Part shown: piece after piece, positions 771 to 28,900 of the stretch
How the letters are laid out: each line of letters starts with the position of its first letter
Position numbering within the stretch: position 1 is the first letter of the stretch
Source: a virus
Lineage: Duplodnaviria; Caudoviricetes
Virus record (IMG/VR): IMGVR_UViG_3300033463_000023
Location: 64,001 to 128,000 of that record
Length of the DNA stretch: 64,000 nt
Strand: one strand, 5' to 3'
The notes under the pieces: model-generated
Databases searched by the model: none
Seen by the model: only the letters and a program-made list of their open reading frames with translations
What the model was told of the DNA's origin: nothing
Program-made: the position numbers and the translations under genes

Positions 771-813
771 CCAACACAAAAAACGATTATTAACAACTTA
801 ACTTTTTCAGATT

Positions 814-1230
814 ATGAACACAATTTCTTTTCTAAACGCAATGAAGGAGGTATTCTCCACTCTCGGTGCGAAAACTTCTGACAGCAACTATGGTGTTGCA
901 CTTCTTGACAAGACCTCAGGCGAGCCCAAGGGCCTGATGGGAATGTCCGACCTCGCCTCAGTTCTGGGCGGTGCTATAACAAGATTTGTAGATGCAAATA
1001 CCATACTTTCAAACATTACAGATGATGCTAATGTTTGTTGGGGACGCGGAGTAGATACGCCATCTGATGCTCCCTTTTATGCCGCTGGTGTATGTATGGT
1101 GAAAAAAACACAATATGGGTGCATTCAAGTGGCATTTAAATCTGCAGGTGAATTTGACGGGTTTTATATTAATCAACGTTGGATGACTACCTGGTCTGGC
1201 TGGAAAAAGAGTATTGTGACCAATGTATAA
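814..1230 (+). CDS. Shufflon expression gene: ~50-aa constant N-terminus (814-963) fused to the currently expressed cassette 1 (964-1230), a putative receptor-binding knob
   Basis: Only segment of the array with a start codon behind an AT-rich leader; TTCTGGGCG at 962-970 inside SDLASVLGG; C-terminal half has a knob-like D-x-N...P...Q...R...W-x-x-W pattern. Confidence 0.85.
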   Translation: MNTISFLNAMKEVFSTLGAKTSDSNYGVALLDKTSGEPKGLMGMSDLASVLGGAITRFVDANTILSNITDDANVCWGRGVDTPSDAPFYAAGVCMVKKTQYGCIQVAFKSAGEFDGFYINQRWMTTWSGWKKSIVTNV

Positions 1231-1236
1231 AATGTT

Positions 1237-1497
1237 CTGGGCGGCGTGAGATACAATGGAGTTTCACTTTCAGATTTTAATAACGCAAAACAACAAGGAG
1301 CTTATAAGATTGACACAGGAACCGCCAACTTTCCCACAGGTGCGTACCAATACGGATGTTTAGTAGTTTTTAATGCAAATCCTTTCTTGGTACAAATTTA
1401 TTTTCCTGATACGAATAGATTTGTTTTCGTTAGGACACTTTATAATGGCATTGAATTCAGAACTTGGAAAATGATATCAATGGAGGAACTTACATAA
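1237..1497 (+). CDS. Silent cassette 2, knob-like
   Basis: LGGVRYNGVSLSDFNN...FRTWKMISMEELT*, in frame from core 1235. Confidence 0.85.
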   Translation: MGGVRYNGVSLSDFNNAKQQGAYKIDTGTANFPTGAYQYGCLVVFNANPFLVQIYFPDTNRFVFVRTLYNGIEFRTWKMISMEELT

Positions 1498-1522
1498 AGA
1501 GGAGGGAACTACCCCTCCTCTT
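1497..1522. terminator. Bidirectional intrinsic-terminator-like hairpin; representative of hairpins at 1933-1956, 2241-2265, 3719-3743, 4693-4715, 5261-5291, 5874-5903, 6263-6289, 6850-6871, 7118-7140, 7704-7728, 8089-8109, 8642-8661, 8948-8969, 9444-9464
   Basis: aagaggaggg-aactac-ccctcctctt; GC-rich stems sit at cassette 3' ends, mostly between convergent stop codons. Confidence 0.75.
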
Positions 1523-1574
1523 ATTATGCAAACGTAATATGTTTCCATTCTCCCCATACACCATTTTCGACATT

Positions 1575-1928
1575 CTGGGCGTGCCTTATAATACAACAGA
1601 CTCCGATACCTGGCTTGATACAGGTAAAGCTATACGTATTGCAACAAATTGCGGCAGACTCTGCGCTATGGTAATAACAAGATACTCTTGCTATGTGATG
1701 TTAGTAAGCGTATATGCAGGAACTATTAATACAGGTCAGTCTTTGAAGGCAAAACTCTCTGGAAGCGATCTTGGTTTTTATTATGTAACAAATGGCAGCA
1801 AATGTGATCTGTATATTACATCTTCTACGTCTACTGACTGCGTAGTAGTTCCTTTCTGGAACACACCACAAGGCACATTTGAGTTAACACCAGTTAACGC
1901 TTTGCCGTCAGGTGCTGTAGCATTCTAA
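1575..1928 (+). CDS. Silent cassette 3, non-knob beta-rich type
   Basis: LGVPYNTTDSDTWLDTG...ALPSGAVAF*. Confidence 0.85.
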   Translation: MGVPYNTTDSDTWLDTGKAIRIATNCGRLCAMVITRYSCYVMLVSVYAGTINTGQSLKAKLSGSDLGFYYVTNGSKCDLYITSSTSTDCVVVPFWNTPQGTFELTPVNALPSGAVAF

Positions 1929-1957
1929 AGAAAAAGGGAGGCTAATACCTCCCTTTA

Positions 1958-2236
1958 TTATGTTTGTGTACTAATCCATACGACATTCGCTCTATTTGTG
2001 TCTGACTTTGTAATTGTAATAGATGATGTTGTACATGTTACACCTGTAACACCTGATGCTTCTATTATTTGGGTTACATTTGTTGATCTTGAAAGAGAGT
2101 AAATACCAGGTTGGGAGGTCGAAGAACCTCCAACAGACACAATCAAGAATCCTGAAGCAGTTGATCTCTCTATTGTGATTTCTGAACTTCCAGCAGGAAT
2201 TTCATGCCTTTGATAAGAAAAACCACATACGCCCAG
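1958..2236 (-). CDS. Silent cassette 4, non-knob type
   Basis: LGVCGFSYQRHEIPAGSSEITIERS...VVWISTQT*, from core 2230-2236. Confidence 0.85.
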   Translation of the reverse strand: MGVCGFSYQRHEIPAGSSEITIERSTASGFLIVSVGGSSTSQPGIYSLSRSTNVTQIIEASGVTGVTCTTSSITITKSDTNRANVVWISTQT

Positions 2237-2266
2237 TAGTAAAGGGAGGCTAATAACCTCCCTTTG

Positions 2267-2557
2267 TTATAATTCCTTCCATGATGACCACGAAACACTG
2301 CCTGGATTTCCCAAACCGTACCTTCCATAAGGAGTGCTGCTTGATCTGTCAATGACAATCTGATACCTATCGTAAGTAGTGTGTATATAAACAAGCAAAA
2401 AACGAGTTGAGGTTGATATTGAAGAAGGAAGATTGGCAGGAGCAGACGATGGTGCGCACATACTCCAATACAATCCTGTTCCTGTTCCTGCTTCAAAATT
2501 TAAATCAGTTAGATTACCAAAATCGCTGCTCTTAATTTTGGTAAAGAATGCGCCCAG
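2267..2557 (-). CDS. Silent cassette 5, knob-like; currently fused behind cassette 6
   Basis: LGAFFTKIKSSDFGNLTDLN...SWSSWKEL*. Confidence 0.85.
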   Translation of the reverse strand: MGAFFTKIKSSDFGNLTDLNFEAGTGTGLYWSMCAPSSAPANLPSSISTSTRFLLVYIHTTYDRYQIVIDRSSSTPYGRYGLGNPGSVSWSSWKEL

Positions 2558-2824
2558 AAGGCTTGCGAGGTCACTTGCTGTGGAGCAATTAAAGCTGTTA
2601 CAGTTACCCCAATCAGACCAGCTTGTACCACTAAAGGTTCTTTGGATAGACCGAGCTAAGGTCGGCTGATAGACGGTCTGCACATATCTACCTCCTGATA
2701 CACCAACTACATCAATTGTCCCCGTATGTCCTCCGGGGAGCAAGTCTGATGAGCAAGTGTATCTTCCTGGTGTCTTCAAATCATCAATCGAATTTCCGCT
2801 GTATGTGGTTACTGCTCCGCCCAG
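2558..2824 (-). CDS. Silent cassette 6, knob-like 'extender' with no stop codon
   Basis: LGGAVTTYSGNSIDDLKTPGRY...WSDWGNCNSFNCSTASDLASL reads straight into the next core at 2551-2559. Confidence 0.85.
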
Positions 2825-2851
2825 AACCAACTTTTATAGCGGTTCTGGGCG
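2818..2851. repeat. Back-to-back recombination sites, spacer family A
   Basis: CGCCCAGAA-ccaacttttatagcgg-TTCTGGGCG; exact reverse complement at 3391-3424. Confidence 0.95.
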
Positions 2852-3099
2852 TACCAACCAAGTTTGCAAAAGGCGCACTACAAGTATCTGCAGACAATAT
2901 TAACGAAGACGGGGCATGGTTTGTGTATGGCACCAGTGGGTTGAACACGCCTACAAACTACGGAATCCTCGTGTGTCGGAAGTCCGCGACCGCAAATTAT
3001 GGATATACCGGGGTACAGGTATTTTATCCTACGACAGGACAACTTTCTCACAGGATACAGACGTCAGGTAGCGAATGGGGCAGTTGGCAAAACGGGTAA
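2845..3099 (+). CDS. Silent cassette 7, knob-like
   Basis: LGVPTKFAKG...SEWGSWQNG*. Confidence 0.85.
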   Translation: MGVPTKFAKGALQVSADNINEDGAWFVYGTSGLNTPTNYGILVCRKSATANYGYTGVQVFYPTTGQLSHRIQTSGSEWGSWQNG

Positions 3100-3136
3100 G
3101 ATAATAAAGGGTGGTACTTAATCCGTCCTCTGTTGC

Positions 3137-3397
3137 CTAAACAGCGATGCCTTCAAATTTTGTCCAACTCCCCCATGAAGATTGTGTCCTAACCCTACAA
3201 TGAATGTACTGTACGACACCACAATGGAACACCACCTGGAGTCTGTTATAATAAGAGGTGCCAAGTTGTAGCGTGACAATTAATGCGTATGCGTCTGGAC
3301 CGCCATGAGCATTGCCCGTAGTTAATGTCATGGTGTTGCCTTCAAGATCATCCAGGGAGGTGTTTTCTTCCATGCTAACGGGTCTCAGGCCGCCCAG
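3137..3397 (-). CDS. Silent cassette 8, knob-like
   Basis: LGGLRPVSMEENTSLDDL...SWGSWTKFEGIAV*. Confidence 0.85.
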   Translation of the reverse strand: MGGLRPVSMEENTSLDDLEGNTMTLTTGNAHGGPDAYALIVTLQLGTSYYNRLQVVFHCGVVQYIHCRVRTQSSWGSWTKFEGIAV

Positions 3398-3424
3398 AAC
3401 CGCTATAAAAGTTGGTTCTGGGCG
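3391..3424. repeat. Back-to-back recombination sites, spacer family A (inverted copy)
   Basis: CGCCCAGAA-ccgctataaaagttgg-TTCTGGGCG. Confidence 0.95.
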
Positions 3425-3717
3425 CACAAGCCACCAAGCCAGTCAATATCGATACGATTAGAGAGGGTGTTTCCTTCTTGGTTATCTCCCGGCCGTTTTT
3501 GAGTGGGTATGAAGGAACTTTTCCTTCTGACATGCAGGCTGGAGGCTATGCGTCTTCTGTGTTCTTGATCAGCGCTGTTTTTATTCAAAACTCCAACGAT
3601 AAAATTGGCGTACAACTGTTGTATAACTGGAATGACGATACTCCAACAGTGCTGAAAAGCTGGTATAGGATATGGGGGTACAATAGTAGGACGTGGAAAT
3701 CATGGAATAGCATTTAA
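3418..3717 (+). CDS. Silent cassette 9, knob-like
   Basis: LGAQATKPVNIDTIREG...RTWKSWNSI*. Confidence 0.85.
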   Translation: MGAQATKPVNIDTIREGVSFLVISRPFLSGYEGTFPSDMQAGGYASSVFLISAVFIQNSNDKIGVQLLYNWNDDTPTVLKSWYRIWGYNSRTWKSWNSI

Positions 3718-3742
3718 GGAGGCGGGCTCTGACCCGCCCCTC

Positions 3743-4102
3743 TTAACTGTATGGCGTCACGCTTAATTGAGTTGCGCCACTTGGCAACGACGCAGGGCTA
3801 AAGGCTTTTGCACCAATAGCAATTAACGACACGCTCATGCCCGTTACAGACTTTATGTATACCGATTTTCCGTCCATGTATATTTCAATATAACGGTTTA
3901 CGCCAGATTCAACTACGCCATTTTTCCCCTTGGCTGATACCGTTCCGCCATTCCCGTATATCGTAAAGTCTATCGTGCCGCGGCTGTCTTTATAGTCTGA
4001 GCCGATTATCCTGATACATTCGTACAGGTCACATGTTCCAAGATAGTATACCGCATTGTTGCTTAGTCCGTATGCGTTATAAACCCTGCTATTTACGCCC
4101 AG
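3743..4102 (-). CDS. Silent cassette 10, non-knob type
   Basis: LGVNSRVYNAYGLSNNAVYYLG...SLPSGATQLSVTPYS*. Confidence 0.85.
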   Translation of the reverse strand: MGVNSRVYNAYGLSNNAVYYLGTCDLYECIRIIGSDYKDSRGTIDFTIYGNGGTVSAKGKNGVVESGVNRYIEIYMDGKSVYIKSVTGMSVSLIAIGAKAFSPASLPSGATQLSVTPYS

Positions 4103-4129
4103 AATGATATAGTGAAGACATTCTGGGCG
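4096..4129. repeat. Back-to-back recombination sites, spacer family B
   Basis: CGCCCAGAA-tgatatagtgaagaca-TTCTGGGCG. Confidence 0.95.
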
Positions 4130-4401
4130 GTATTGACGATATATACAAAGGGTCTTTTGCTGTAAACGACACGGTTTCCATAGCACTAAGAGAAGGCTGT
4201 GGGGTATTCTGTTATCGGTTTAAAGGACAGAGCTCCGGCATAATCGCTGTTAGAGGCACGGATATCAAATATTTCACATATACCGATTATGAGGAAGCTC
4301 CTTTAGGGGCAAGACTGAGAGCTGGATCAGATGGTAGCACATTGACCATCACATGTACTCAAGCATGGAATAATCCGTTCCATCTAAAGAGACTGATTTG
4401 A
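4123..4401 (+). CDS. Silent cassette 11, non-knob type (not in ORF track)
   Basis: Manual translation LGGIDDIYKGSFAVNDTVSIALREG...QAWNNPFHLKRLI*. Confidence 0.8.
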   Translation: MGGIDDIYKGSFAVNDTVSIALREGCGVFCYRFKGQSSGIIAVRGTDIKYFTYTDYEEAPLGARLRAGSDGSTLTITCTQAWNNPFHLKRLI

Positions 4402-4405
4402 ATTT

Positions 4406-4689
4406 CTGGGCGATACAGGTCCGGCGATAACGACAGGATCGTGTAACGATATAGTCAAAGCTGGAGTCTACAGACTTCAACCAACTGTTAGCGACACCCC
4501 TTTCGCTTATACTACGTTGTTCGTATTAACGCGCTTGGGTGGTGCTGTCCATCAAATCGGCCTTGATGCTGACAATAGTTATGTGGCATACAGGGTCGGT
4601 GAAAATAATGTGTGGAAAAACTGGTCACGCTGCGACAACTTCGGCTGAGCACGCTTGCCGAGATGAAGGCGGCACTGGCTAATGTATAG
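4406..4689 (+). CDS. Silent cassette 12, knob-like; stops early at TGA 4646-4648 because of an apparent 1-nt deletion (not in ORF track)
   Basis: LGDTGPAITTGSCNDIVKAGVY...WKNWSRCDNFG*, then STLAEMKAALANV* in a shifted frame, matching the cassette 15 tail DNFGCSTLAELKTALANA. Confidence 0.8.
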
Positions 4690-4719
4690 TGAGGTGGGAG
4701 CAACAAACTCCCACCCATA

Positions 4720-5004
4720 TTACTCTATCGGAATATAGTAAACGGTAACCGTCGTTCCTGAATCAGCATTATTGATAGTCCATGTTCCCTGATTGTTTGT
4801 CGAAGGCGTCAAGTCTCCCACAATCTTTTCGTTTACATGGAATGTTACATTGCCAGAGCCGAGTCCTGTTGTTATGACAAAATAAACGCCACACTTCTTG
4901 AAGTCACTTTGAAACGCCACAATAAATCCGTGTGCGGTACTGTTTTTGAAAGCGGTGGCACCTATTCCTTTATTTATAACCTTCAGTCTATTATCTACGC
5001 CCAG
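4720..5004 (-). CDS. Silent cassette 13, non-knob type
   Basis: LGVDNRLKVINKGIGATAF...TVTVYYIPIE*. Confidence 0.8.
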   Translation of the reverse strand: MGVDNRLKVINKGIGATAFKNSTAHGFIVAFQSDFKKCGVYFVITTGLGSGNVTFHVNEKIVGDLTPSTNNQGTWTINNADSGTTVTVYYIPIE

Positions 5005-5020
5005 TTGTGATTTCTGGGCG
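4998..5020. repeat. Shortened back-to-back site pair (23 bp)
   Basis: CGCCCAG-ttgtgat-TTCTGGGCG. Confidence 0.9.
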
Positions 5021-5259
5021 TATCAAGAATAACTCCGTCAGATTTAAACACTGAGAGTTTCTTCGGAGTATTTAAAACCGACGGACAAACACAGAACAAT
5101 CCCGCTGATGGATCTGCAATGGTGGGCGTACAATTTAGGGGAGAGCCTCTTAGTACCGTCCAAATGCTTTTCCGTAGTGCCTATGGTGAAATATACTATA
5201 GGTCTGGTGTCCCTAACGGCCAATGGTATAAGTTTGTAGGAACGCCTGTTCAGGTATAA
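5014..5259 (+). CDS. Silent cassette 14, knob-like (not in ORF track)
   Basis: LGVSRITPSDLNTESFFGVF...GQWYKFVGTPVQV*. Confidence 0.8.
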   Translation: MGVSRITPSDLNTESFFGVFKTDGQTQNNPADGSAMVGVQFRGEPLSTVQMLFRSAYGEIYYRSGVPNGQWYKFVGTPVQV

Positions 5260-5292
5260 TACAATCGGGAGGCGACAGGTCTCCCGATTGTT

Positions 5293-5607
5293 CTACGCAT
5301 TAGCCAGTGCTGTCTTCAATTCAGCAAGTGTGCTGCAACCGAAGTTATCTACCCGTACCCAAACTGACCAGGTTCCGTCGTGTTTTGTTCGATGGTATAT
5401 TTGACCATTTCCTCTGTAATAAGCAGTTTGTGAAACCTCATCAGATGACGATTCGTCACTGGAATTTAATGATTTGACGGTTAAAATACAAAGAGATGGT
5501 TCTGGTATGTTTTGTGAATAACCTGATAATGTATAAGTTCCCGCTATCGTTAATGTATTAGCATCTAAAACTGATGTAGATACATTTCTTACGCCATCTG
5601 CGCCCAG
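5293..5607 (-). CDS. Silent cassette 15, knob-like with C-terminal helix
   Basis: LGADGVRNVSTSVLDANTL...WSVWVRVDNFGCSTLAELKTALANA*. Confidence 0.85.
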   Translation of the reverse strand: MGADGVRNVSTSVLDANTLTIAGTYTLSGYSQNIPEPSLCILTVKSLNSSDESSSDEVSQTAYYRGNGQIYHRTKHDGTWSVWVRVDNFGCSTLAELKTALANA

Positions 5608-5636
5608 AAGTTCAGTTGTGTGTAATCTTCTGGGCG
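5601..5636. repeat. Back-to-back recombination sites, spacer family D
   Basis: CGCCCAGAA-gttcagttgtgtgtaatc-TTCTGGGCG; identical at 7390-7425; inverted with one mismatch at 6557-6592. Confidence 0.95.
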
Positions 5637-5875
5637 GCGTGCCGTCAATGCACACTGCGGATTCTTCTATTGATGCGAACACCTTAGCTGTGCCCGGGTT
5701 TTATCAATCCACTGTTTTTACTAATACACCTATTGCCGTTGGCATTTTGCTTATGCCGTACTATGCAAACGGTTGGTGGAGGTTCCAGTTGTTTATAGAC
5801 CGCTCCGAAGGCCACATGTGGTTTAGGTGTGGCACTTCCAGTTCTTTTGATGCGACCTGGAAACAGATAGTATAA
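5630..5875 (+). CDS. Silent cassette 16, knob-like
   Basis: LGGVPSMHTADSSIDANTLAVPGFY...ATWKQIV*. Confidence 0.85.
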   Translation: MGGVPSMHTADSSIDANTLAVPGFYQSTVFTNTPIAVGILLMPYYANGWWRFQLFIDRSEGHMWFRCGTSSSFDATWKQIV

Positions 5876-5901
5876 TATGGATAGGCAAAAACCTATCCAT
5901 A

Positions 5902-6156
5902 TTATACCGTCTTCCATGTTGCCGTTTCTCTGTGTCTCCAATATATTCCAGTGCTTTCCAGATCAAGAACGATGGTGATTATGCCGTTAGTAAGGAATTT
6001 GATTCTTCTTATGTAAACAGAGTTGCTGTCGGAGATGGTTTCAGGCAAACCTTCACACCTTACTGCATATTGGAAAACATAATCACCTAACGGCAAGTCG
6101 TCGAGTGCAAAACTTTTGTCGTTTGCCGTGATTTGTTTTACATAAGCTACGCCCAG
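5902..6156 (-). CDS. Silent cassette 17, knob-like
   Basis: LGVAYVKQITANDKSFALDDLPLGDY...ATWKTV*; variant site TCCTGGGCG. Confidence 0.8.
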   Translation of the reverse strand: MGVAYVKQITANDKSFALDDLPLGDYVFQYAVRCEGLPETISDSNSVYIRRIKFLTNGIITIVLDLESTGIYWRHRETATWKTV

Positions 6157-6290
6157 GACAACACATGTAATATATGAAAGAGTAAAATGGTCAACATCTG
6201 TAAGCGCGTGGATAGCGTACCAACCACAAACGTAAGAAGGAAAATGTGGCGGAATTAGGCTAAAGAGGAGGGAGCGACTCCCTCCTCTTG

Positions 6291-6563
6291 TCATACCTCA
6301 CCCCACGATCCCCATTCTGTTTCAGACCACCTGGAACGTTTCCACAGCTTTGAGTTCCCTTTTGAGAGACATATCTGGAACCTGACATATTCCGATCGAG
6401 CGACAGAAAGCAGAAGAACCTCATTATTGTTGTCTGGGAAATTTAATGATGCTGGTGTTGCGTCCCTTGCAATAACGTCATGTACACTAAGGCCGTCGTT
6501 TATATTGTTGAGATTCGTGTCCACCTCATATTGAATGCCTTTTATTGCAAGCAATGCGCCCAG
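6291..6563 (-). CDS. Silent cassette 18, knob-like
   Basis: LGALLAIKGIQYEVDTNLNN...EWGSWGEV*. Confidence 0.85.
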   Translation of the reverse strand: MGALLAIKGIQYEVDTNLNNINDGLSVHDVIARDATPASLNFPDNNNEVLLLSVARSEYVRFQICLSKGNSKLWKRSRWSETEWGSWGEV

Positions 6564-6592
6564 AAGATTACACACAACTGAATTTCTGGGCG
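6557..6592. repeat. Back-to-back recombination sites, spacer family D (inverted copy)
   Basis: CGCCCAGAA-gattacacacaactgaat-TTCTGGGCG. Confidence 0.95.
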
Positions 6593-6843
6593 TTATTCGT
6601 TATACAACCTTAATTCCGGCTGGAAGTGATTGCAACGACTTCAAACAGAGTGGCTTATATAATACAGCGGCAAACCTTCAAAATGCGGCATATGCTGGAG
6701 GTCATATTCTTTTCGTTATGAGAGCAGGAGAATATGTCGCACAAATAGCCTTTGATCCAACTGAAGGTAAAGCAAAGCTGAGAACTATAATAGATCGGGC
6801 CGGTTCCACGTATACATGGGTAAACTGGCAAATTATTGTATAA
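6586..6843 (+). CDS. Silent cassette 19, knob-like
   Basis: LGVIRYTTLIPAGSDCNDFKQSGLY...WVNWQIIV*. Confidence 0.85.
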   Translation: MGVIRYTTLIPAGSDCNDFKQSGLYNTAANLQNAAYAGGHILFVMRAGEYVAQIAFDPTEGKAKLRTIIDRAGSTYTWVNWQIIV

Positions 6844-6875
6844 ATACAAGCGGGAGCTGCATGGCTCCCGCCTCT

Positions 6876-7118
6876 CTGGGCGGCATAAGGTTGTCCGATA
6901 GTGCAATTGCGAATTACGCAGACATGACAATGTCTGGCTTATATGTGAGAAATCCAAATACACCTCTCTCCGGCTCAGACATTAATATTGGGTGGGATGG
7001 TACATACCTTTTTATTGCCCATCTCAAATTTGGTACTATGGGCTGCTTAGATATTGCTACAGTATACAACCATACCAAATATTGGATTGGTTTTAGCAAC
7101 GACTGGAGAGAATTATAA
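6876..7118 (+). CDS. Silent cassette 20
   Basis: LGGIRLSDSAIANYADMTMSGLY...NDWREL*; variant site CTCTGGGCG. Confidence 0.8.
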   Translation: MGGIRLSDSAIANYADMTMSGLYVRNPNTPLSGSDINIGWDGTYLFIAHLKFGTMGCLDIATVYNHTKYWIGFSNDWREL

Positions 7119-7138
7119 AAGGGAGGGTTTACCTCCCT

Positions 7139-7396
7139 TTAGATATTGGTCATTGTACATTTCTTCCAGGCAGACCAAGAAGCACTGCTGCCTCCTTTGT
7201 ATCTATGTCCAATTATATTCTCAGCGTTGCACGAGAAGAAGACTTGACAGGACATGGAAGATCTTATCATTACGAATACGATGCCAGGGCAGCTAAACGG
7301 ACTGTTAGAACTGTCTATTCTATAAGTTCCGGAGCCGACGGTGTTAAGAGTTTCTGCCGTCAGATCCGCAGAGCCTACATAAGCACCAACGCCCAG
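7139..7396 (-). CDS. Silent cassette 21, knob-like
   Basis: LGVGAYVGSADLTAETLNTVGSGTY...WSAWKKCTMTNI*. Confidence 0.85.
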   Translation of the reverse strand: MGVGAYVGSADLTAETLNTVGSGTYRIDSSNSPFSCPGIVFVMIRSSMSCQVFFSCNAENIIGHRYKGGSSASWSAWKKCTMTNI

Positions 7397-7425
7397 AAGT
7401 TCAGTTGTGTGTAATCTTCTGGGCG
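7390..7425. repeat. Back-to-back recombination sites, spacer family D
   Basis: Identical to 5601-5636. Confidence 0.95.
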
Positions 7426-7673
7426 CGGTTGTCATAATTGGCACGTTTTCAGATGCAAGCGAATTGGAGAGTCACCCAGTATGTGCGGGACGGGCGTCTG
7501 GATCTGCTACAGGAGTCCCGGAGCAGAATAGTTTTTATCTAAGCATAAAGATAAATGGAGATTACATTTTTCAGATTGGTGTAGGCAAAGAGTCCAACTT
7601 TATATATGTGAGGACAAAGTTCTACGGAGGATGGAGGAACTGGTGGAAAGCTGCGACAACCAAAATTGAATGA
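7419..7673 (+). CDS. Silent cassette 22, knob-like
   Basis: LGAVVIIGTFSDASEL...GGWRNWWKAATTKIE*. Confidence 0.85.
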   Translation: MGAVVIIGTFSDASELESHPVCAGRASGSATGVPEQNSFYLSIKINGDYIFQIGVGKESNFIYVRTKFYGGWRNWWKAATTKIE

Positions 7674-7733
7674 TAGCATTATAACCATTCATTGCACAAT
7701 GAAAGAGACGGGTTGTTACCCCGTCTCTATTTG

Positions 7734-8084
7734 TTAAAGCAATGTATATGATACGTTGCCGTACCTTTGGATTTCAGACACCATAAGAGCGCCAAACGAG
7801 TTGCCTCCAACGGCAGTACACGTTACCTTCACATCTCCGTCGCTGTTGTCTGACGATGGTGTAAATTCTATATTGATATAATCCGTTTTCACAACAACCT
7901 GTCCATTGAGCAGCGAATCCCTGTGTGCAAGGTTGATAATTGCGCATGCTTGCAAATTAAAGAAATTCCTTGTCACGCAAAGAACGGCGTTTCCCTGCAT
8001 GGGAAGATTTACATTAAATTCGATAACCACAGGATTGCTGGTACCGGAGCTTTTAAAGGCGTATACCACATATTGTGCGCCCAG
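7734..8084 (-). CDS. Silent cassette 23, non-knob type
   Basis: LGAQYVVYAFKSSGTSNPVVIEFN...GNVSYTLL*. Confidence 0.85.
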   Translation of the reverse strand: MGAQYVVYAFKSSGTSNPVVIEFNVNLPMQGNAVLCVTRNFFNLQACAIINLAHRDSLLNGQVVVKTDYINIEFTPSSDNSDGDVKVTCTAVGGNSFGALMVSEIQRYGNVSYTLL

Positions 8085-8112
8085 AAAAGAGGTGGGTTAA
8101 TCCCACCTCCTA

Positions 8113-8379
8113 TTATGTTAAAGCAAGGTATTTCCACGATATCCAATTAGAATTGTTTCTTATCCTAAAATAGACTCTTGTCAAATCGGACATTATCCAT
8201 ATTTGCAAGGTGTTGTAATTTGCATTACCTGCGCCAGTAGCAAACGTCAGCAATATTCCCCATTGAGTAGGTAGATTGTGGCTTGAATAACTTGAATCAT
8301 TGACAGAGTAAGCACATGTTGTGAGTACTGTGTTGGCATCTATGTTAGCGATATGACCTTTTGGTAGCACACCGCCCAG
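8113..8379 (-). CDS. Silent cassette 24, knob-like
   Basis: LGGVLPKGHIANIDANTV...NWISWKYLALT*. Confidence 0.85.
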   Translation of the reverse strand: MGGVLPKGHIANIDANTVLTTCAYSVNDSSYSSHNLPTQWGILLTFATGAGNANYNTLQIWIMSDLTRVYFRIRNNSNWISWKYLALT

Positions 8380-8406
8380 AATGTCATCGTGTTACCATTC
8401 TGGGCG
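8373..8406. repeat. Back-to-back recombination sites, spacer family E
   Basis: CGCCCAGAA-tgtcatcgtgttacca-TTCTGGGCG; identical direct copy at 9205-9238. Confidence 0.95.
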
Positions 8407-8639
8407 CATTGGTAGAAAAACATATCATGATAGAAGATCCAGACAGTATAAACAACACAGGCATATATCCAGCAACGTTTACATATAAAACAGGAACAGC
8501 CAGGGGAATGCTTGTTGTGTTCGCAGATAGTACAGTTAGTAGTTTTCCGGCCCAACTCTTTATCGGCTATAACGAGTGTATGGTGAGAAGGGCATCTAAC
8601 ACACAAGCATCATCTTGGTTAGATTGGAAAGAACTTTAA
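8400..8639 (+). CDS. Silent cassette 25, knob-like
   Basis: LGALVEKHIMIEDPDSINNTGIY...SWLDWKEL*. Confidence 0.85.
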   Translation: MGALVEKHIMIEDPDSINNTGIYPATFTYKTGTARGMLVVFADSTVSSFPAQLFIGYNECMVRRASNTQASSWLDWKEL

Positions 8640-8683
8640 TAGGTGGGAGAAAACTCCCACCCATAATTATGAAATAGTCAGCT

Positions 8684-8941
8684 CTGGGCGTAGCAGACTT
8701 CCAAAATTTTTCAGGCAAAGACCTTCCGGATTATGATGCTAACGCACTGGTAACTGGTATTTATTCTACAGCTGCAAACAGAGATTCCAATATTCCAGTT
8801 AACGTTAACGGACTTCTCCTCTGCTTTAAGAGGTCAGCGGTGTATTTTCAGGTTTACATGATAATGGGTAGCTCCATTTTTTACAGGAATTATTTTAACG
8901 AATGGAACGCATGGAAAAAACTGGAGGGAACACCGGTTTGA
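8684..8941 (+). CDS. Silent cassette 26, knob-like (not in ORF track)
   Basis: LGVADFQNFSGKDLPDYDANALVTGIY...EWNAWKKLEGTPV*. Confidence 0.8.
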   Translation: MGVADFQNFSGKDLPDYDANALVTGIYSTAANRDSNIPVNVNGLLLCFKRSAVYFQVYMIMGSSIFYRNYFNEWNAWKKLEGTPV

Positions 8942-8971
8942 CAAATAGAGGTGGGCGCATACCCACCTCGT

Positions 8972-9211
8972 TTACTGATCCACCGTTCCTTCAATCTTTC
9001 TCCACGACTGCCATCCTGCTGTCGTTCTGCTACGGGTTAGCACAAATTCCCTATTATAGGGGGCGTAAAACAAAAAGAAATCGAACTTTAAGAGCATACC
9101 GTTAGTGTTGGAGTCAGAAGGCAATCCTTGCAGGCTTGACCCAAAATACAACCCGTCCGCAATTTCTGTTGGGTTTACGTTTGTTATTTCTCCTTTGTTC
9201 ATTACGCCCAG
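8972..9211 (-). CDS. Silent cassette 27, knob-like
   Basis: LGVMNKGEITNVNPTEIADGLY...GWQSWRKIEGTVDQ*. Confidence 0.85.
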   Translation of the reverse strand: MGVMNKGEITNVNPTEIADGLYFGSSLQGLPSDSNTNGMLLKFDFFLFYAPYNREFVLTRSRTTAGWQSWRKIEGTVDQ

Positions 9212-9238
9212 AATGTCATCGTGTTACCATTCTGGGCG
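9205..9238. repeat. Back-to-back recombination sites, spacer family E
   Basis: Identical to 8373-8406. Confidence 0.95.
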
Positions 9239-9441
9239 TTACATTTAGCACCATTCCTTCTACTTCAGATCCATTTCAAGGGTGGCAAAAGATGTGTATT
9301 CAGTTTAAAAACGCTAACGCCGTTACTCAGTTTGCCATTAAACTAACACGCACATCAGGTTTTTCCGTTGCTGTCAGATCAACAGATGACAATTCAGCAG
9401 CCGATATTAACAGCAAAACATGGGAAAACATTAAAAACTAA
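9232..9441 (+). CDS. Silent cassette 28, short (69 aa)
   Basis: LGVTFSTIPSTSDPFQGWQ...KTWENIKN*. Confidence 0.8.
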   Translation: MGVTFSTIPSTSDPFQGWQKMCIQFKNANAVTQFAIKLTRTSGFSVAVRSTDDNSAADINSKTWENIKN

Positions 9442-9467
9442 GGAGGTGGGTTTGTAGCCCACCTTAA

Positions 9468-9719
9468 TTATGTGTTGTCTGTAGCCAAATATGTCCAAGG
9501 ACCTGCCGAGGCTCTCAATGCAAACTTTTTCCCGGATGAAGCGTTGTATGCCATTTGTAAACAATACCCGTCCAGGTGGCTGTTAATCGTCAGGCATACG
9601 CCAAAGGTAAACGGGGCATTTGTGGTTTGGCTGGAAATAACACAGATACTATTTTGTTTGTTGTTGCCAAGTAAATTATCAAGATCGTACTGGCCCGTTA
9701 GTTTGGTTATACCGCCCAG
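9468..9719 (-). CDS. Silent cassette 29, knob-like (not in ORF track)
   Basis: LGGITKLTGQYDLDNLLG...GPWTYLATDNT*; its site abuts the recombinase stop codon. Confidence 0.8.
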   Translation of the reverse strand: MGGITKLTGQYDLDNLLGNNKQNSICVISSQTTNAPFTFGVCLTINSHLDGYCLQMAYNASSGKKFALRASAGPWTYLATDNT

Positions 9720-9722
9720 GAC

Positions 9723-10946
9723 TTACTTCGGTTTCCGCTTCCTGAAGATCTTCTTCGTGGCCTTCTCCGCGGCGTGGTCCCTGTCGAAGGTGTAGTGCGC
9801 CTCGGTGGTCCGCGTGCGGCTCTGGCCGAGGATGGACGTGATGTTCTGGATGGGCATGCCCATCAGCGAGAGGTTCGTGGCGCACGACTTGCGCGCGACG
9901 TGGAAGCTGACGGCCTTCCCGATGCCCGCCATCGCGGCGACCTCCTTGATGACCCTGTTGGCGGTGGAGTTGCACGGCACGCAGTGAGACAGCTCGCGGA
10001 CGTCCGGGTAGCGGCAGAGGATGTCCATGCCCCTGCCCCAGAACAGCGACCTGATCGGCACGGCGACCTGCCGCTTCGTCTTGTGCATCGTCTTGCGCAG
10101 CACGCCGTTCCTGACGGTCGCCTCCTCGAGCGTGGAGAGGTCGCTCCACCGCAGGCCCGTGTAGCAGCCGAGGAGGAACAGGTCGCGCACCCTCGCCTGC
10201 CGCCCGGCGAGCTCCAGGCGCTCCATCCTCGCGATCTCCGCCAGGGAGAGGAACGCCACCTTCGGCCTCATGTTCCCTATCGTGATGAAGCGGAACGGGT
10301 CGCCGGGCATGGCGTCGCGCTTGCGGGCCTCCTCGCAGAGGGCGTGGAGCGCCTTCAGCCGCCCGATGGCGGTGTTCTCGGCCAGCCCCTTGCCGTCGAT
10401 GAGGAAGGCCCTGTAGCGCTCGATCATGTCGTGCGAGAGCTCCTGCATCGTCGTGTGCGGGCGGAACTCCTCGAAGGACCTGGCCAGCGTGCGGTAGCTC
10501 TCCTTCGTCGACGCGCTGCGCCCCGCCGACGGGACGATGACCGCCTCGACCATCTCCGCGACGGTGGCGGACCTCGACACGCGGCTCAGGTAGGCCTCCT
10601 TCACGCGCCGCGGCGTCGGCGCCGCCCCGGCGGCCTCGAGCTCGTCCTCGTGCTCCATGAGGCGGCGGACGATGCGGGCGACCTTGCGGTTCAGGAGGTC
10701 GTAGTTCGGGTCCGTGGGCTGCACCTTCCCGTAGCGGAAGTCCTCCTGGCGGACCCTGACGTGGGTGTTCACCGTGGCCCGCTCCCCGGTGCCGGCCATG
10801 TAGATGCTGACGACGACGGCGCGCGTGCCGTCGGCCGCCACGTACCCGTTCCTGCTGAGGACGGGCCTGAAGGTGATGGTGGATATCATAGGCGTAGGTC
10901 GTTTGTTGTCGTTCATAATATGTACGGAAAACGGGCGGCGTTTCAT
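9723..10946 (-). CDS. Tyrosine recombinase, probable shufflon invertase (start may be 10916 or 10889)
   Basis: GLRWSDL (Arg), FHVARKS (HxxR), LGQS, TTEAHY (Tyr); Bacteroidetes-type arm-binding and SAM-like N-terminal domains; directly adjoins the array. Confidence 0.92.
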   Translation of the reverse strand: MKRRPFSVHIMNDNKRPTPMISTITFRPVLSRNGYVAADGTRAVVVSIYMAGTGERATVNTHVRVRQEDFRYGKVQPTDPNYDLLNRKVARIVRRLMEHEDELEAAGAAPTPRRVKEAYLSRVSRSATVAEMVEAVIVPSAGRSASTKESYRTLARSFEEFRPHTTMQELSHDMIERYRAFLIDGKGLAENTAIGRLKALHALCEEARKRDAMPGDPFRFITIGNMRPKVAFLSLAEIARMERLELAGRQARVRDLFLLGCYTGLRWSDLSTLEEATVRNGVLRKTMHKTKRQVAVPIRSLFWGRGMDILCRYPDVRELSHCVPCNSTANRVIKEVAAMAGIGKAVSFHVARKSCATNLSLMGMPIQNITSILGQSRTRTTEAHYTFDRDHAAEKATKKIFRKRKPK

Positions 10947-22905: not shown

Positions 22906-25900
22906 CTACAGGTACTTCTCCCCGTGCCTTGCTGCTTCTTTCTGCAGCTTGGCGATGACGTTCGGCAGGCCGTCGGGCCCGTAGAGGATGTTCTGCGCGA
23001 CGATCGGCTCGCTGAGCCGGGCCAGCAGCGCCTCCTGCACGGCGGTGTTGCGGTCGAGCGACCCCTGGATGGCCGTGAGGTCCGTGCCGCCGCCGATGCC
23101 GCCCGTCGTGCCCCAGGCATCCCCGAAGTCGTCGAGGTTGCCGTCGGCGAAGGCGCGCACTCCCCCGCCCCGTCGGCGCATGGCGGAGAGCCGCCCGCCG
23201 TTGTAGAGCGTCTGGATGCTCTGCCAGATCTCCGGCTCGTTCAGGCGGATGTCGCGGGTGGTGTGGGCGTCGATGATCGCCTCCTGCCCGGCCTCGCCGA
23301 CGAGGTGGAACTCCGGCCCGCTGGTGACGTGGGTCTTCGCTCCCTTGCCCATGTACCTTGCGCGGTAGGTCCTGCCGTCGGCGGCGTCGACGTTGTACTG
23401 CCTGCCAGGCGTGAGCGTAGAGGGGTCGGTGAACTCGTTGACGTTACCGCTGGCGTACGTCATCATGCCCGTTGACAGGCGGCCGGCCGAGACGGACGCG
23501 CCGGTGACCTGGGCGATCTGCGACTTCGACTTGGCGATCTTCGATACGGCAAAACCGAGCAGGCCTCCGAGCAGGGCCGTGATGGCGGCGAAGGCAGCGG
23601 GTCCTGCGATCGGGCCAAGCTGTGCAAACGTCTTCGACGCGACGGCGGGAGTGTCTGCTGCAACCTGTGCCGTGTTCTGGGCCATGGAAGTCGTCAGTGC
23701 CGATATGGCCGCCTGGCCCGCCGCCTGCACGGCGATCATCTCGAACTTCTGGGCTGTCGAGAGATTGTCGTTCGACATGGCCTGGTAGGCGATTCCGTAG
23801 AGGTTGGCGGCGGCGGTCATCTTGGCGAAGGCCGACTGCGCGCCGCCCGCGATCTTGTTGTCTGTCTGCTGCTCGCCCTGCTGCACCTTCTTCTGGTTGT
23901 TGAGGACCTGCGCCGTGGCGGCGTCCGACGCCTGCACCTGGGCGTTGTAGGCGTTCTGCATGCTCTCGATGCCGGCGGCCGTCATCTGCCACGGAGCCTT
24001 GTATGGCAGGCCTTCCGGTTGCTCCGCCACGGCGGGCTGTATCGGCGAAACGACTTGTCCGCTGCCGTCGAGCGCCATGCCGTTCTCGTCGCGCTTCAGC
24101 TTGCTGGCGTCGGAGAAGTCCGACTGGCCGCCAGCGATCCCGCCGAGCAGGTCGTACAGCGCCTGGGTGTTCAGCCCCAGCGCCGCCGTGTTGGCGTCTA
24201 TCGCCTCGTTCTGCAGCGCGGCGTTCATCCAGTCGGTGATCTGCTCGTCCATCTTGGCGTTGATGTCGTCCATCACCTTCTTCCACGCGTCGGCCTGGGC
24301 GTTCTGCTGCTCTATCTCCCGCTGGCGCTCCAGGGCCTGGCGGTCGTTGAGGTACTCGTAGTGGGCGGCTGCGTCCTCCGTGCCCTCGTTCTCGATGACG
24401 ATGTACGTCCCGGCGCCGGGGCCTCCCTTGCCGGTGAGCTCCATCTTCGCCAGCTCGTTGTAGTACTCCGCGTTGCCGGCGTTGCTGGCTTCCATCACGT
24501 CCTGCAGCGAGCCCGTCAGCAGGTCTGCCCATTCCCTCAGGCTCTGATAGAGGCGGTTCTGGGACTCCTCGGTGCGGGCGATGATCTCCTCGCGCTGCTT
24601 GGCCAGCTCGGTCAGCTCCTTAGCCTGCGAGATATTCAGTGATGTCGTCAGGTGCTGAGCGTCGAGCGATGCCTCCACAGATTTCGTCACGGCTTCCTCT
24701 GCCTGCCGCGCCTTCAGTCGTGCCTCTTCGGCCTTGCCTGCGTCCTTGGCGGCCTCGGCTTCCTTCTTCAGGCGCTCTGCCTTCCGTTTCTCCAACTCTG
24801 CCTCGCGCTCCAGGAAAGCAATACGCTTCCTGCCCTCCTGCTCCATCAGGTTGTAGTAGTGTTCCTGCATCGTGATCTTCAGCTTCATCTGCTGGATGGC
24901 GAGCTTGTCGGCCACGCGTTCCGATGCTGCACCGGCACCTATCAGGCTGTTGGCACGGCTCACCCTGCCCTCTTCCAGTCCCAGTGCGCTTATGGCCAGT
25001 TCGTAGCTGTCCTTCAGGCTGGCGCTCTGGCCGGGCATCACGTCCTGCCACATGATGTCAACCTGCTTCTTGATCTGCGACGCCTCCTTCTTGATGGCGT
25101 TCTGCACGTCGTCGTACACTTTGTGCAGCGCCTCCAGTATCGACTGCCGCTTCTGGTCGTCCACCATCAGCTCGTCGGCCCATTCTCCCAGGCCATTCTC
25201 GCGCATCCGCTTTGCCAGCTCATCGACGGTCAGCGCATAGGCGTTCTCCGCCTCTCCCAGCAGGAAGCGCATGCGCTTGGCCTCGGCCTTCACCAGCACA
25301 CCTGCGTCGGTCACGCCCTTCTTCTCCATGTCGGCAAAGAGGATGTCCATGTCCGTCAGGTTCTTGCGCAGGTTGTCCACGATGCCGTCATAGGGCCGTT
25401 CCTTGGCCACGATGTCGGCTATCTTGTTCAGATGCTTCACGGTGATCTCCTGCATCTTCGTCATGTCCTGCTGCATGCGGTAGTTGTTGCGCCCTATCTG
25501 TCCGGCGTTGGCCTTGGCCCACTCGGTGGTGAGCTTCTCGCGCTGCAGCTCGTCCAGCTCGAAGTTCTTGTGCAGTGTCTCCCACCACTCGTCGAACGCC
25601 TTGGTCTCCTCCTTCGATATCTCGCCGGTGAACGACCCGCGCAGCTTCGCCCGCCGCTCCAGGTGCTTCTGCTCCAGCAGCTCCGCCTGGCGGTTGTACA
25701 GCTCCTCGCTCATGTTCTCGTCGATGCGCGCCTTCTCCAGCGTCTCCTTGCGGCGCGAGTAGTAGCGGTCGAGCTCCGCCAGCGCATAGTCCGTCTCCGG
25801 CATCAGGTTCTTGCGCTTGCCCGTCTTGGCTTCCGCAGCCCAGTGCCCCTCGTTGGTGGAGAAGCGCTCGCTCTTCAGCTCCTGCTCGATCTTCTTGCGC

Positions 25901-28900
25901 TCCGCGTTGTACCAGTCGATGACGTCATTCATGTTCGGCTGCACCTTGCCGTCGTTGATGGCCTTCATCAGGGCGATGTCCTCGGCCAGCACCTTCCTGA
26001 TGTCGGTATCAGGGCGGATCGCGTTCTTGAAACGGTCCATCTGGTTGCGGCGGGCCACCAGCTCGTCAACGTTCCAGGAAGCGTAGTCGGTGCTGGCGGC
26101 CTCCGGCTCGGTGCCCCAGATGTTCGCGGACGATCCTGCGCTGCCGCCTTCGCCTATGCCGCCTGCCTCGCCCTTCTGCGCCTGCTTGGCGGCTTTGATG
26201 ATCTGCCTGCGCTGTTCCTCCGTGAATGCCCTGAAAAGGGTCTCAACGACATTCTCGACAGTGGCTTCGTTCCCGTTGGCTACATACTTGTCGGCTTTGT
26301 CAAGCTCTCCATTGAACTTGTTCAGGTTGGCGGTGATGATGTTCACCTGCTGTGCCAGGTCGCCGACATTCTCCATCGCCCTCTCCGCACCGCCGGCGAT
26401 TTGGTTAAGGACACGGTTGTAGGCATCGTCATTCATCTTGTTGGCGCTCGCTATGCTGGCACTACGGGCCCCTTTTGTGAACGATTCCGAATCCTGGCGT
26501 TTCTCCTCTATCTCTGCTTCGCGCTTCAGGGTCCTCTCCGTCCACTGGTCGAACGACCTGAACGACTGGCTGATGAAGTCTTCGAGCGTGTTGCTGACTT
26601 CGCTGTAGATGGTAGTCCCATATATGGTGCTTCCGGTAGCCACGGAACGGGTTCCAAAGTTCAGCGGCACCTCCTTGCCGTTACGGTCTCTCACGTTTCT
26701 GGCGCCGGCGACCTCTTCCCTTACGATCTTTCCGAACACCTTCTCCAGCTCCTTCCGCAGTTCGGCATAGCTGCCTCTTGTCACCTCGCCGCCTGTAAGT
26801 CCCTCGATGGCAGGCAGCGTGTACGACGCCTTGCCGTTCTCGTCGACGCTGTAGCGGATGCTGCCACGCACAGTGTTCCAGCGGCTGCGTATCTGGCGCT
26901 GCATGTCGGCCGGCAGCGACTTCAGCGAGGCCGTGCTTCTTGCGCCGGCCTCGTCGATGCCCTCGTTGTGCTTTTCGTCGATGCCCTCTATCTCCTTGTT
27001 CAGCCGCTTCTGCTCCAGCTCCTCCTTCAGCGCGTCCACGATCTGCAGGTGTGCCAGCGCGACCTGCTCGGCGGCAGTCTTCTCGTTGAGCATGTAGCCC
27101 AGGTAGGTGCTGTACTTCGAGTTGATCTCGCTGATAAGCCCGCTGCGGGTCTTGTTGGCCTTGTTCATCTCGTCGGAGGCAGACTTCAGTTCCTTCTCCT
27201 TCTGCTTCAGCTCCTCTTCCTTCTTGCCCAGCCTGTCGTGGGCCTCTGTGCTCTTGTCGGTAGAGCTCCTTAGGACGTCAACCTCCTTGCGCAGTTCGTC
27301 TGTCTCCTTTTTCAGCTTACGGTGCTTCTCGGCCGCCTCGTTGGCCTTGGGTATGGCTTTCTCGAGCGAGGATGTCAGCCTGCCCACCTCCCGCTCTGCT
27401 GCGGCTTCCTCGTTGTCGAGCCTGGCCAGCGAGAGCGCCATGGCGTCGATATTGGTGGCGGCGTCCCAGATGGCCTTGCCCAGCAGATACACAGCTGAAG
27501 CAATGGCAAACATCAGGTTCGCCTTCGACGCTGCATCCATCGCTCTCCATGCGGCGCGCCATTTCGCGGCCACGCCCGTTATCTGCACGCCGAGGGATTT
27601 CACGCCCGTAATGGCCAGGTTCAGAGGTTTGATGAGGTATGTCCAGATGGCTCCGCCGATGCCGAGTTTCCACGCGCCGAACGCGAACATGACGGAAAAC
27701 GCGCCGTCCTTCAGCCTGACAAACAGGTCCAGCACAACGCGCATGCCGTCGATAACGCCGCCGAGCCAGCGCTGCATGCTGTCATTCACAAACACCTCCT
27801 CCAGCTGGTTCTTGAAACGCTCCCATCTTGCGGCGGTGGTCTCGTTCATCTTGTCGTACTCCTGCTGGATGGCGATATTCCCCTCATACGCCCTGGAGGC
27901 GGTGCCGAGGTGTTCCTTCAGCGTCTCCACGTTCTGAGACAGGCCGGCAAAGACGATGCCGGCCCTGGCACCCTGCTGGTTCAGCTGCTTCATCACGTCC
28001 TTCATGCCGCCCATGTTCAGCATCTCCTCGATGCCCTCCTCGTCGAGGCCCGCATCCTTGATATGCTGGAACACCATGAGGATGGCCTCCATGCCACGGC
28101 CGGTGGCAAAGAGGTCGCGCAGGTCGTTCGGGGCCACCTTGATGGCCTTGGCAACCTCGAACGCATTGTTCTTTATCGCTGGGATCATTCGTGACAGGGC
28201 GGTAGCCGACATCTCGACTCTCATGCCCAACGCGTCGACCGTAGAACCCAGAGCGGCCACCTGGTCGATGGTGATGCCGCTCTGTGCTCCGACGGCTCCA
28301 ACACGCTTCACAAAATCAGTAATAGCGGGGGCGGTGGCGGCGCTGGTGGCACGCAGACGGTCGATGGTCGAGCCGACCTTCTCCATTGCCACGGCCGTGG
28401 CAGAGGATCCGTCGATGATTCCCTCGCGCATCTGCTTGTCAATCTTGGCGATCTCGCCGGTGGCAAGCGCCACCTTCAGCATCTCGGTGGCACCTTCCTT
28501 ACCCATTTCCGGCAGGGCCACCATCAGCTTGTTGGCGGCCTCCGTGAATCCCTCCACGTCCTCCTGCGTCTTCAATCCCAGCTGGCCTGCAGCCACGGAC
28601 AGGTCGAGAAGGCCGGTCAGCGCGGTACGGGTATCCATCTTCCTCAGGTTCTCGCTCAGCCGCCCCACCTCGTCAGCCGTGAAGCCGGTGGTCTTGCGCA
28701 CCTCGCCCATCTTGTCCGAGAGCTCCAGCAAGTCGGCGAAGGATGCCGTGACCTTCTGCAAGGCGGTGGCGGCGCTGACGTAAAGGGTGATGTATGTCTT
28801 CAGTCGGCCCATGGCTTTCTCAAACGAGCTGGCGGTTCCCTTGCTGGTGGCGCCGAGCCGCTTCATCTCAAAGTCGGCCTTCTTGACTTTTGCTGCCAGT

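Follow-up and report, generated by a model that had tools for sequence, protein, structure and literature searches.

A phage shufflon in which one stop-less cassette may carry a second variable slot

Can a cassette of a phage shufflon itself offer a slot for the next cassette? The question is raised by a 64,000-nt stretch of DNA (hereafter the window), positions 64,001 to 128,000 of the IMG/VR virus record IMGVR_UViG_3300033463_000023 (Duplodnaviria; Caudoviricetes), in which a gene for a variable protein is followed by an array of 29 cassettes and a tyrosine recombinase. Cassette 6 of this array, to which we refer as the extender, has no stop codon and reads in frame through a crossover site into cassette 5. 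Given the anatomy of the window and the two-knob proteins that we identified in relatives, we put the probability that a cassette-borne second slot is operative in the window's phage at roughly 70%.

The source genome, a single contig of 144 kb, has a guanine-plus-cytosine (GC) content of ~60%, except for a low-GC island (~43%) at 780-9720. The heptamer CTGGGCG occurs 29 times within 964-9719 (15 on the plus strand and 14 on the minus strand), and TCTGGGCG is present in 28 copies in the window, compared to 3.1 +/- 1.9 in shuffled sequences, with 25 of the 28 located inside 963-9238. When translated in frame from each heptamer (CTG GGC, or Leu-Gly), 28 of the 29 cassettes yielded products of 69-119 amino acids (aa), each with its own stop codon. 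Conservation across the 29 sites is limited to a 9-bp core, TTCTGGGCG, with flanks that are almost without information. A start codon is carried by a single gene of the array (at 814), and its product with cassette 1, the cassette expressed at present, is a protein of 138 aa with an identical copy in public assemblies (P0006). Clustered sites in both orientations, the in-frame placement of these sites, and an adjoining recombinase are all present, and we consider the region 780-9720, judged by these sequence features, to be a phage shufflon.

Within this array, the extender is the sole stop-less cassette of the 29. Its frame spans 185 aa from 2824 on the minus strand to the stop codon at 2267-2269, and the two cassettes appear together in the list of open reading frames (ORFs) as one entry of 187 aa (2267..2830, minus strand), with a junction peptide of ...NSFNCSTASDLASL/LGAFFTKI... 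(slashes mark the junction here and below). An initial annotation of this DNA had described the open passage through a full site into cassette 5, and the translation from all 29 sites bears this out. The inner site, at 2551-2559, matches the consensus at 9/9 positions and, given that nothing beyond the 9-bp core is conserved at the 29 sites, counts as a full-consensus site. No hairpin between cassettes 6 and 5 was listed in a scan for terminators.

The end of the extender also resembles that of the constant region. As protein, the likeness that had been noted earlier (SDLASLLG compared to SDLASVLG) is real. As DNA, the strings that had been proposed as a shared element, GACCTCGC-N5-TTCTGGGCG at 949-970 (+) and 2572-2551 (-), are correct, but the GACCTCGC part of them is not meaningful. 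We rejected GACCTCGC as a part of the site, since neither the 29 sites nor the inner sites of relatives conserve it; in the latter, the codons for D-L-A vary (GAT CTT GCC in the locus L004, GAC TTG GCG in L009). By our own count of synonymous Asp and Leu codons, the chance of such a match is ~1 in 12, and the extra identity is probably a coincidence of encoding the same amino acids, given its lack of conservation.

In the mechanism that we propose, the tyrosine recombinase would exchange DNA at the Leu-Gly-encoding core, fusing the constant N-terminus of 50 aa to one of many knobs (~85 aa) of a putative small, trimeric receptor-binding tail protein. Each site would be made of a left flank and a right flank (the cassette), which are re-paired by inversions between opposed sites, and two left flanks in the locus would be coding, the constant region and the extender's 3′ end. 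Given that the extender has no stop codon or terminator and has the same linker end (..SDLASL/LG..) as the constant region, it can be read as an adaptor knob with a downstream slot of its own. An inversion between 964(+) and 2824(-) would produce constant-6-5 (235 aa), one between 964(+) and 2557(-) would produce constant-5 (146 aa), and one between 2557(-) and any plus site would place a new distal knob on the extender (e.g., cassette 7 by way of 2845(+)). The repertoire would grow from 28 one-knob products to 28 one-knob and up to 28 two-knob products, varying in length and in the identity of the tip. From the sequence, we infer that the recombinase would use 2551-2559 in the window's phage today, and two-knob proteins would presumably be assembled on virions and change the host range.

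Relatives provide products of the kind that such a slot would make. When 5.8 billion proteins were searched with the 187-aa ORF, three relatives were returned. The protein P0002 (228 aa; cluster mate P0005, encoded at L004:468-1154) consists of a homologous constant region, an extender, and a second knob; its extender is 78% identical to cassette 6 and ends in ...CMSAEDLASL/LG, and its second knob is without a close homologue among the 29 cassettes of the window. The same type of extender is followed by a third, different knob in P0004 (P0002, P0004, and P0070 were compared as protein sequences). Homologues of the extender therefore stand before three different second cassettes, namely cassette 5 in the window, one in P0002/P0005 (L004), and another in P0004. 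More broadly, the constant region (52 aa) is common to 42 protein clusters, 39 of which are one-knob proteins (107-157 aa). The other three, P0002 (228 aa), P0064 (231 aa), and P0053 (241 aa), have two knobs. In P0053 (L013-L015) and P0064 (L016), the order is constant region, knob, linker, and knob, and the window's cassette 20, which stands alone there, is a 77.5% homologue of the distal knob in P0064. These arrangements, in which a further knob follows the first in the expression sites of relatives (P0002, P0053, and P0064), support the initial proposal that the system varies domain number and length.

The variation in domain number goes beyond what had been proposed. In L004, which shares the gene order of the window (90-aa membrane protein, constant region, cassettes), we noted a silent ORF of 433 aa (L004:1880-3181, minus strand) that joins four cassettes, three of which are stop-less, with the core at each junction. 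This is the longest chain that we observed; its linkers read ..LDALASA/LG.., ..NFGCNTAADLASL/LG.., and ..LLSPLASA/LG.., and two further chains are present in L004. A three-knob chain adjoins a fibre gene of at least 817 aa in L012, and L002 expresses a protein with the order constant region, knob, LSSLASALG, and knob. Using a profile of the extender, a search of 1.84 billion representatives gave 30 matches, many of them two- or three-knob proteins with an NFGCSTxxxLASLLG linker, and one of them (P0007) a long fibre with five tandem knob copies.

Other collections gave little. No relatives of cassette 6 or of the recombinase were found in scans of IMG/VR, where the head-to-head site pattern had two chance matches only, both in GC-rich, unrelated contigs. 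A scan of Joint Genome Institute (JGI) metagenomes found none with the extender profile and two short loci (L007 and L008) with the constant-region profile. The constant region was not found in a scan of GTDB genomes, and nothing in GenBank phages matched the 6-5 protein.

Cassettes 6 and 5 are not always linked in relatives, the pattern that the initial annotation had associated with a single two-domain cassette. In addition to the three partners of the extender, homologues of cassette 5 (75-84% aa identity) occur without an extender, behind a different constant region of ~100 aa (P0001, L001:212-793) and, as P0003 (L002:1203-1511), alone as a silent cassette adjoining a recombinase. In an alignment with L001 and L002, the three cassette-5 modules share ~90% DNA identity from the core through the ORF to a GGGAGG/CCTCCC hairpin; the homology starts exactly at the core, with unrelated sequence directly upstream, and ends just after the hairpin. 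Compared to L001:503-790 and L002:1221-1508, cassette 5 (2267-2557) displayed a synonymous divergence (dS) of 0.06-0.09 and a nonsynonymous divergence (dN) of 0.08-0.14, with dN/dS of 1.2-1.6. For cassette 6 and its nearest relative, the homologue in L004, dS was 1.14 and dN/dS was 0.145, a ratio that indicates purifying selection on the extender. Given the breakpoint and the differing dS, cassettes 6 and 5 have different histories and were joined at the core, recently in the case of cassette 5. The cassette-5 values suggest that the cassette passed from phage to phage very recently and that its knob is under diversifying selection.

The core is retained at such junctions. It is CTGGGCG in the window, L004, L009, L012, L013, and L016, CTGGGTG at all 13 sites of L010/L011, and CTCGGCG in L007/L008 (TTCTCGGCG). 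We noted that related phages have cores one synonymous base apart, with all sites of a given phage changing together, a pattern that would be expected if the core is the region of strand exchange and has to be identical between partners. Among the knob-L-A-S-x-L-G-knob junctions in 8 loci, 14 of 15 carry the 7-nt core of their own phage, including CTGGGTG in L010, compared to 1 of 28 Leu-Gly dipeptides elsewhere in these ORFs. A match that extends to synonymous positions would be expected of a recombination site but not of a protein motif. In L002, a relative with two cassettes, the inverted repeat is lengthened to ~18 bp (1200-1230 and 2130-2170; TTGCATCAGTTCTGGGCG), which hints that the recombinase may recognize sequence beyond the 9-bp core where the flanks are free to match.

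Assemblies also bear on whether switching takes place. Five groups with an identical constant sequence carry different cassettes; the L004 constant region is found in a two-knob product (P0005) and in one-knob products (P0069 and P0070), and L007 and L008 have the same constant DNA with different cassettes right after the site. Several points, however, weigh against an inner site in regular use. The only other assembly of the window's phage, a Logan contig, is collinear across 2551-2559, and four assemblies of L013-type phages are all in an identical arrangement, so switching may be slow or biased. The differences in partner among relatives could have arisen over evolutionary time and not by routine switching. 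For a tyrosine recombinase, a core of 9 bp is short, and the inner site could be ineligible if the enzyme has accessory requirements. The sites at 2557 and 2824 are direct repeats, 267 bp apart, between which deletion is possible if the enzyme permits it. Finally, the linker junction at L013:5403 is off-core (CTGGGTG in a CTGGGCG phage), so some two-knob cassettes are probably frozen, and 6-5 could be another.

The collinear assemblies and the decayed core in L013 are what favour the most serious rival, in which 6-5 is a single, fixed cassette of two domains, the inner core is an unused relic of the fusion, and the phage makes 28 one-knob products and a single two-knob product. We consider this unlikely, given that the inner site is indistinguishable from the 28 others, that the inner junctions of relatives keep the core at a rate far above that of control Leu-Gly sites, and that cassette 5 was joined so recently.

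We give somewhat less weight again to a second rival, in which the mosaic junctions stem from co-infecting phages that recombined at the linker, homologously or illegitimately, without the shufflon recombinase. The L-A-S-x-L-G linker is nearly invariant and might serve as a patch of micro-homology, and cassette 5 has clearly been passed between phages whose constant regions are unrelated. The break in homology, however, maps onto the 9-bp core with unrelated sequence upstream, and the synonymous positions of the core track the variant of each phage (CTGGGTG in L010, CTGGGCG elsewhere), which neither protein constraint nor homologous exchange would enforce. That the extender is a decaying cassette, with a stop codon lost by mutation and an accidental, non-functional read-through, is very improbable. 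The array does contain degenerate elements, namely a frameshifted tail in cassette 12 and cassette ends left as orphans, but the dN/dS of the extender has stayed low over a dS of 1.14, its L004 homologue is in frame with a second knob and expressed in relatives, the linker is kept in many two- and three-knob proteins, and both domains are predicted to fold confidently.

An extender with a second slot would have to yield a protein of two stacked domains, and the predicted structures are compatible with this. The AlphaFold2 (AF2) model of the 6-5 ORF, computed from an alignment headed by 6-5, had a mean predicted local distance difference test (pLDDT) score of 81, with residues 11-70 of cassette 6 above 90, and comprised two beta-rich domains (residues ~5-80 and 95-187) with a short helix (residues 85-91, DLASLL) between them. 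A Foldseek comparison of this model against the PDB matched 9euf (phi812 baseplate), 6iab (P68 fibre), 6v8i (80alpha), and 5efv (phi11), with further matches to 6cl5/6cl6 (R1/R2 pyocin fibres) and 8ju3 (Mu fibre), all with E-values of 1e-5 to 5e-3; the template modelling (TM) score was only ~0.34 because the orientation between the domains differs. Trimer modelling, which had been put forward with the initial annotation, was run on the natural two-knob protein P0002. Its three-copy model scored 0.83, compared to 0.00 for the best of 3 controls, with at least 86% agreement in contacts between runs and a partner pLDDT of at least 82. Of proteins solved as one-chain pairs, 20 of 30 reached that mark, as did 1 of 23 solved as single chains; this calibration is unlike the P0002 run, which used its own alignment and three copies, and the score may stem from likeness to solved trimeric fibres. 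The predicted contacts span the constant part, the linker, and both knobs, which makes a stacked two-knob trimer plausible.

Table 1. Coordinates of the features discussed, as positions in the window.
Feature	Positions	Strand	Basis
Constant 5′ part of the variable gene, 50 aa (MNTISF...GMSDLASV); left flank of slot 1	814..963	+	ORF translation
Expression-site crossover core TTCTGGGCG, read as Val-Leu-Gly	962..970	+	Site search
Cassette 1, expressed at present, 88 aa with own stop	964..1230	+	Translation from core
GGGAGG...CCTCCC hairpin closing the cassette-5 module; cassette 4 core (2230-2236) directly next	2241..2265	.	Sequence; hairpin kept in L001/L002
Cassette 5, 96 aa plus stop (2267-2269), current partner of the extender	2267..2557	-	Translation
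Inner site (candidate slot 2), core TTCTGGGCG, in frame as Leu-Leu-Gly; 5′ boundary of the cassette-5 module	2551..2559	-	Site search
Cassette 6 (extender), knob domain ending WSDWGNCNSFNCSTASDLASL, no stop codon	2558..2824	-	Translation
5′ site of the extender cassette, core TTCTGGGCG; head-to-head partner is the cassette 7 site (2843-2851)	2818..2826	-	Site search
Cassette 12, knob; capped linker STLAEMKAALANV out of frame via a 1-nt deletion; stop 4646-4648	4406..4682	+	Comparison with cassette 15
Cassette 15, knob with capped linker ...VDNFGCSTLAELKTALANA, then stop; site decayed to CTGGCT	5293..5607	-	Sequence and translation
Tyrosine recombinase, 407 aa, 3 nt from the last site (9713-9719)	9723..10946	-	Pfam

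The recombinase (Table 1) matched the Pfam families Phage_integrase (5.9e-13), Phage_int_SAM_5 (5e-12), and Arm-DNA-bind_5 (6e-4), and R, H-x-x-R, and Y are all present. It is 60% identical to the enzyme adjoining the L012 shufflon, and its homologues flank the arrays of L012, L013, and L002. We noted that the usual second His (LGH) is replaced by Gln (LGQS) in the window's recombinase and in the L012 enzyme (L012:277-1488), and that the shufflon recombinases of L013 and L002 retain it. In the L013-type shufflon, which is compact, the cassettes are separated from the recombinase by an ankyrin-repeat protein, and an IS605 OrfB/TnpB-like gene is next in L015 (L013:5930-6412, L015:6303-7439).

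The closest recombinases in GenBank phages are integrases of Bacteroidota phages (22-27% identity). A scan of GTDB genomes with the recombinase profile gave 80 loci, the best of which (40-43% identity) are on contigs of rumen Prevotella metagenome-assembled genomes (MAGs). L-A-S-x-L-G junctions were absent from the 11 best of these loci, so they serve as a hint to the host only; the contigs L017-L023, from GTDB, are the closest recombinase relatives in cellular bins and have no such junctions nearby. Judged by the chains and two-knob proteins of relatives, stop-less cassettes are not peculiar to the window, and the variant appears general to a family of ruminant-gut Bacteroidota phages, with the host itself only hinted at. 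Upstream of the array lie the 90-aa membrane protein and tail-module genes with weak matches to PHROG tail families, and neither Pfam nor PHROGs gave a family for the variable protein or its neighbours. A very large ORF of 2815 aa (window 22906-31353, minus strand) is located in the GC-rich part of the genome.

Elsewhere in the array, many sites are arranged head to head (2818-2851, 3391-3424, 4096-4129, 5601-5636, 6557-6592, 7390-7425, 8373-8406, and 9205-9238), with spacers of 16-19 bp that are drawn repeatedly from a few families and include exact inverse copies. Such reuse is consistent with the inversion or duplication of head-to-head pair units. Two cassettes, 15 and 12, have linkers that are capped (Table 1). 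In cassette 15, the cap is CSTLAELKTALANA, followed by a stop codon, and the same cap is present in P0046; cassette-15-type knobs in P0019 and P0031 have a live LASLLG/LASGLG linker with differing partners. The capped ending, CSTLAELK[TA]ALA.. followed by a stop codon, was seen at 5293-5350 (-) and 4630-4682 (+) in the window and in P0046, and, given its recurrence in different phages, represents a conserved alternative C-terminus and not random decay.

If the second slot operates as proposed, a shufflon would pass from the choice of one ending out of N to the combinatorial assembly of a variable number of domains, with no extra enzyme. The repertoire would be about doubled in the window's phage and multiplied in relatives with chains of up to four. 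We are evenly divided over a wider view, a 'chain shufflon', in which stop-less, site-ended knobs would give a variable number of knobs (1-2 here, up to four in L004) and with it a programmable distal knob, tip reach, and valency, and in which cassettes would be swapped at the core between unrelated phages in an integron-like manner. The modular rule that emerges for receptor binding (a knob, a helix 'xxLASxLG', and the next knob) could guide the engineering of phage host range for laboratory, gut, or rumen bacteria and could aid the annotation of small ORFs near Bacteroidota phage integrases. Between unrelated phages, cassette 5 has a very low dS and a dN/dS that exceeds 1, values that suggest a rapid trade in cassettes and their rapid diversification; this bears on how gut and rumen phages keep pace with the variable surfaces of Bacteroidota.

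Compared to known systems, the window shares with the R64/IncI shufflon (Rci, sfx, pilV) short, asymmetric sites inside a coding region, a constant N-terminal part with alternative C-terminal cassettes, and one adjoining tyrosine recombinase. In R64, as far as is known, every pilV segment ends the protein, and there is one slot with 7 variants on a constant part of hundreds of residues. The window, in contrast, has 29 cassettes, a constant part of only 50 aa, a recombinase of the Bacteroidota integrase type (Arm-DNA-bind_5/SAM_5), and a stop-less cassette with a candidate second slot. It appears to fall outside the Rci/R64-type class, given this integrase architecture and the 9 conserved bp, compared to the 19-31-bp sfx sites with a conserved right arm.

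The switching of tail-fibre C-termini by inversion is shared with Min (p15B, with six crossover sites), Gin (Mu), and Cin (P1), and the Mu fibre is also among the structural matches (8ju3). These three are serine invertases that act on 26-bp sites with an enhancer, and Min reportedly places six alternative 3′ ends on one constant part, with no variable domain number. The tandem-knob receptor-binding fibres (6cl5/6cl6 of R1/R2 pyocins; those of the Staphylococcus phages phi11, 80alpha, and P68) resemble the predicted product in having two small beta knobs on a trimer axis; their knob number is hard-wired in one gene, whereas that of the window would be set by site-specific recombination.

Closer in setting are the Rin system of bifidobacterial prophages, with five Rv cassettes (PMC6109161), and the tail-fibre shufflon of BV01-like Phocaeicola phages, with three cassettes and six isoforms (PMC13596623), in both of which, as described, each variant has its own stop codon. 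Both share with the window a location in phage receptor-binding or tail-fibre genes, a neighbouring tyrosine invertase, and short repeats (10-11 bp) upstream of the cassettes; a Bacteroidota host applies to BV01 and not to Rin, and the window's array is much larger than either. Unlike the window, neither description includes a stop-less cassette that hands the frame to a further site. The hsdS inversion system SpnD39III (PMC4190663) likewise has two exchangeable positions in one gene, with sites at the 5′ end of the ORF and in its middle, and combinatorial alleles. In hsdS, however, the products always have two domains and the middle site is placed within a region that is fixed and conserved, whereas the candidate second slot of the window rides on a mobile cassette, so that its products would have one or two domains, and up to four in relatives.

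The initial annotation knew of no nested slot in the classic shufflons. We likewise found no report of stop-less, site-terminated cassettes in full-text literature searches and in the Rin and BV01 descriptions, although hsdS does provide a precedent for two slots with a fixed number of domains. The shufflon principle, then, is a known one, and what the window adds to it is a probable second slot borne by a cassette.

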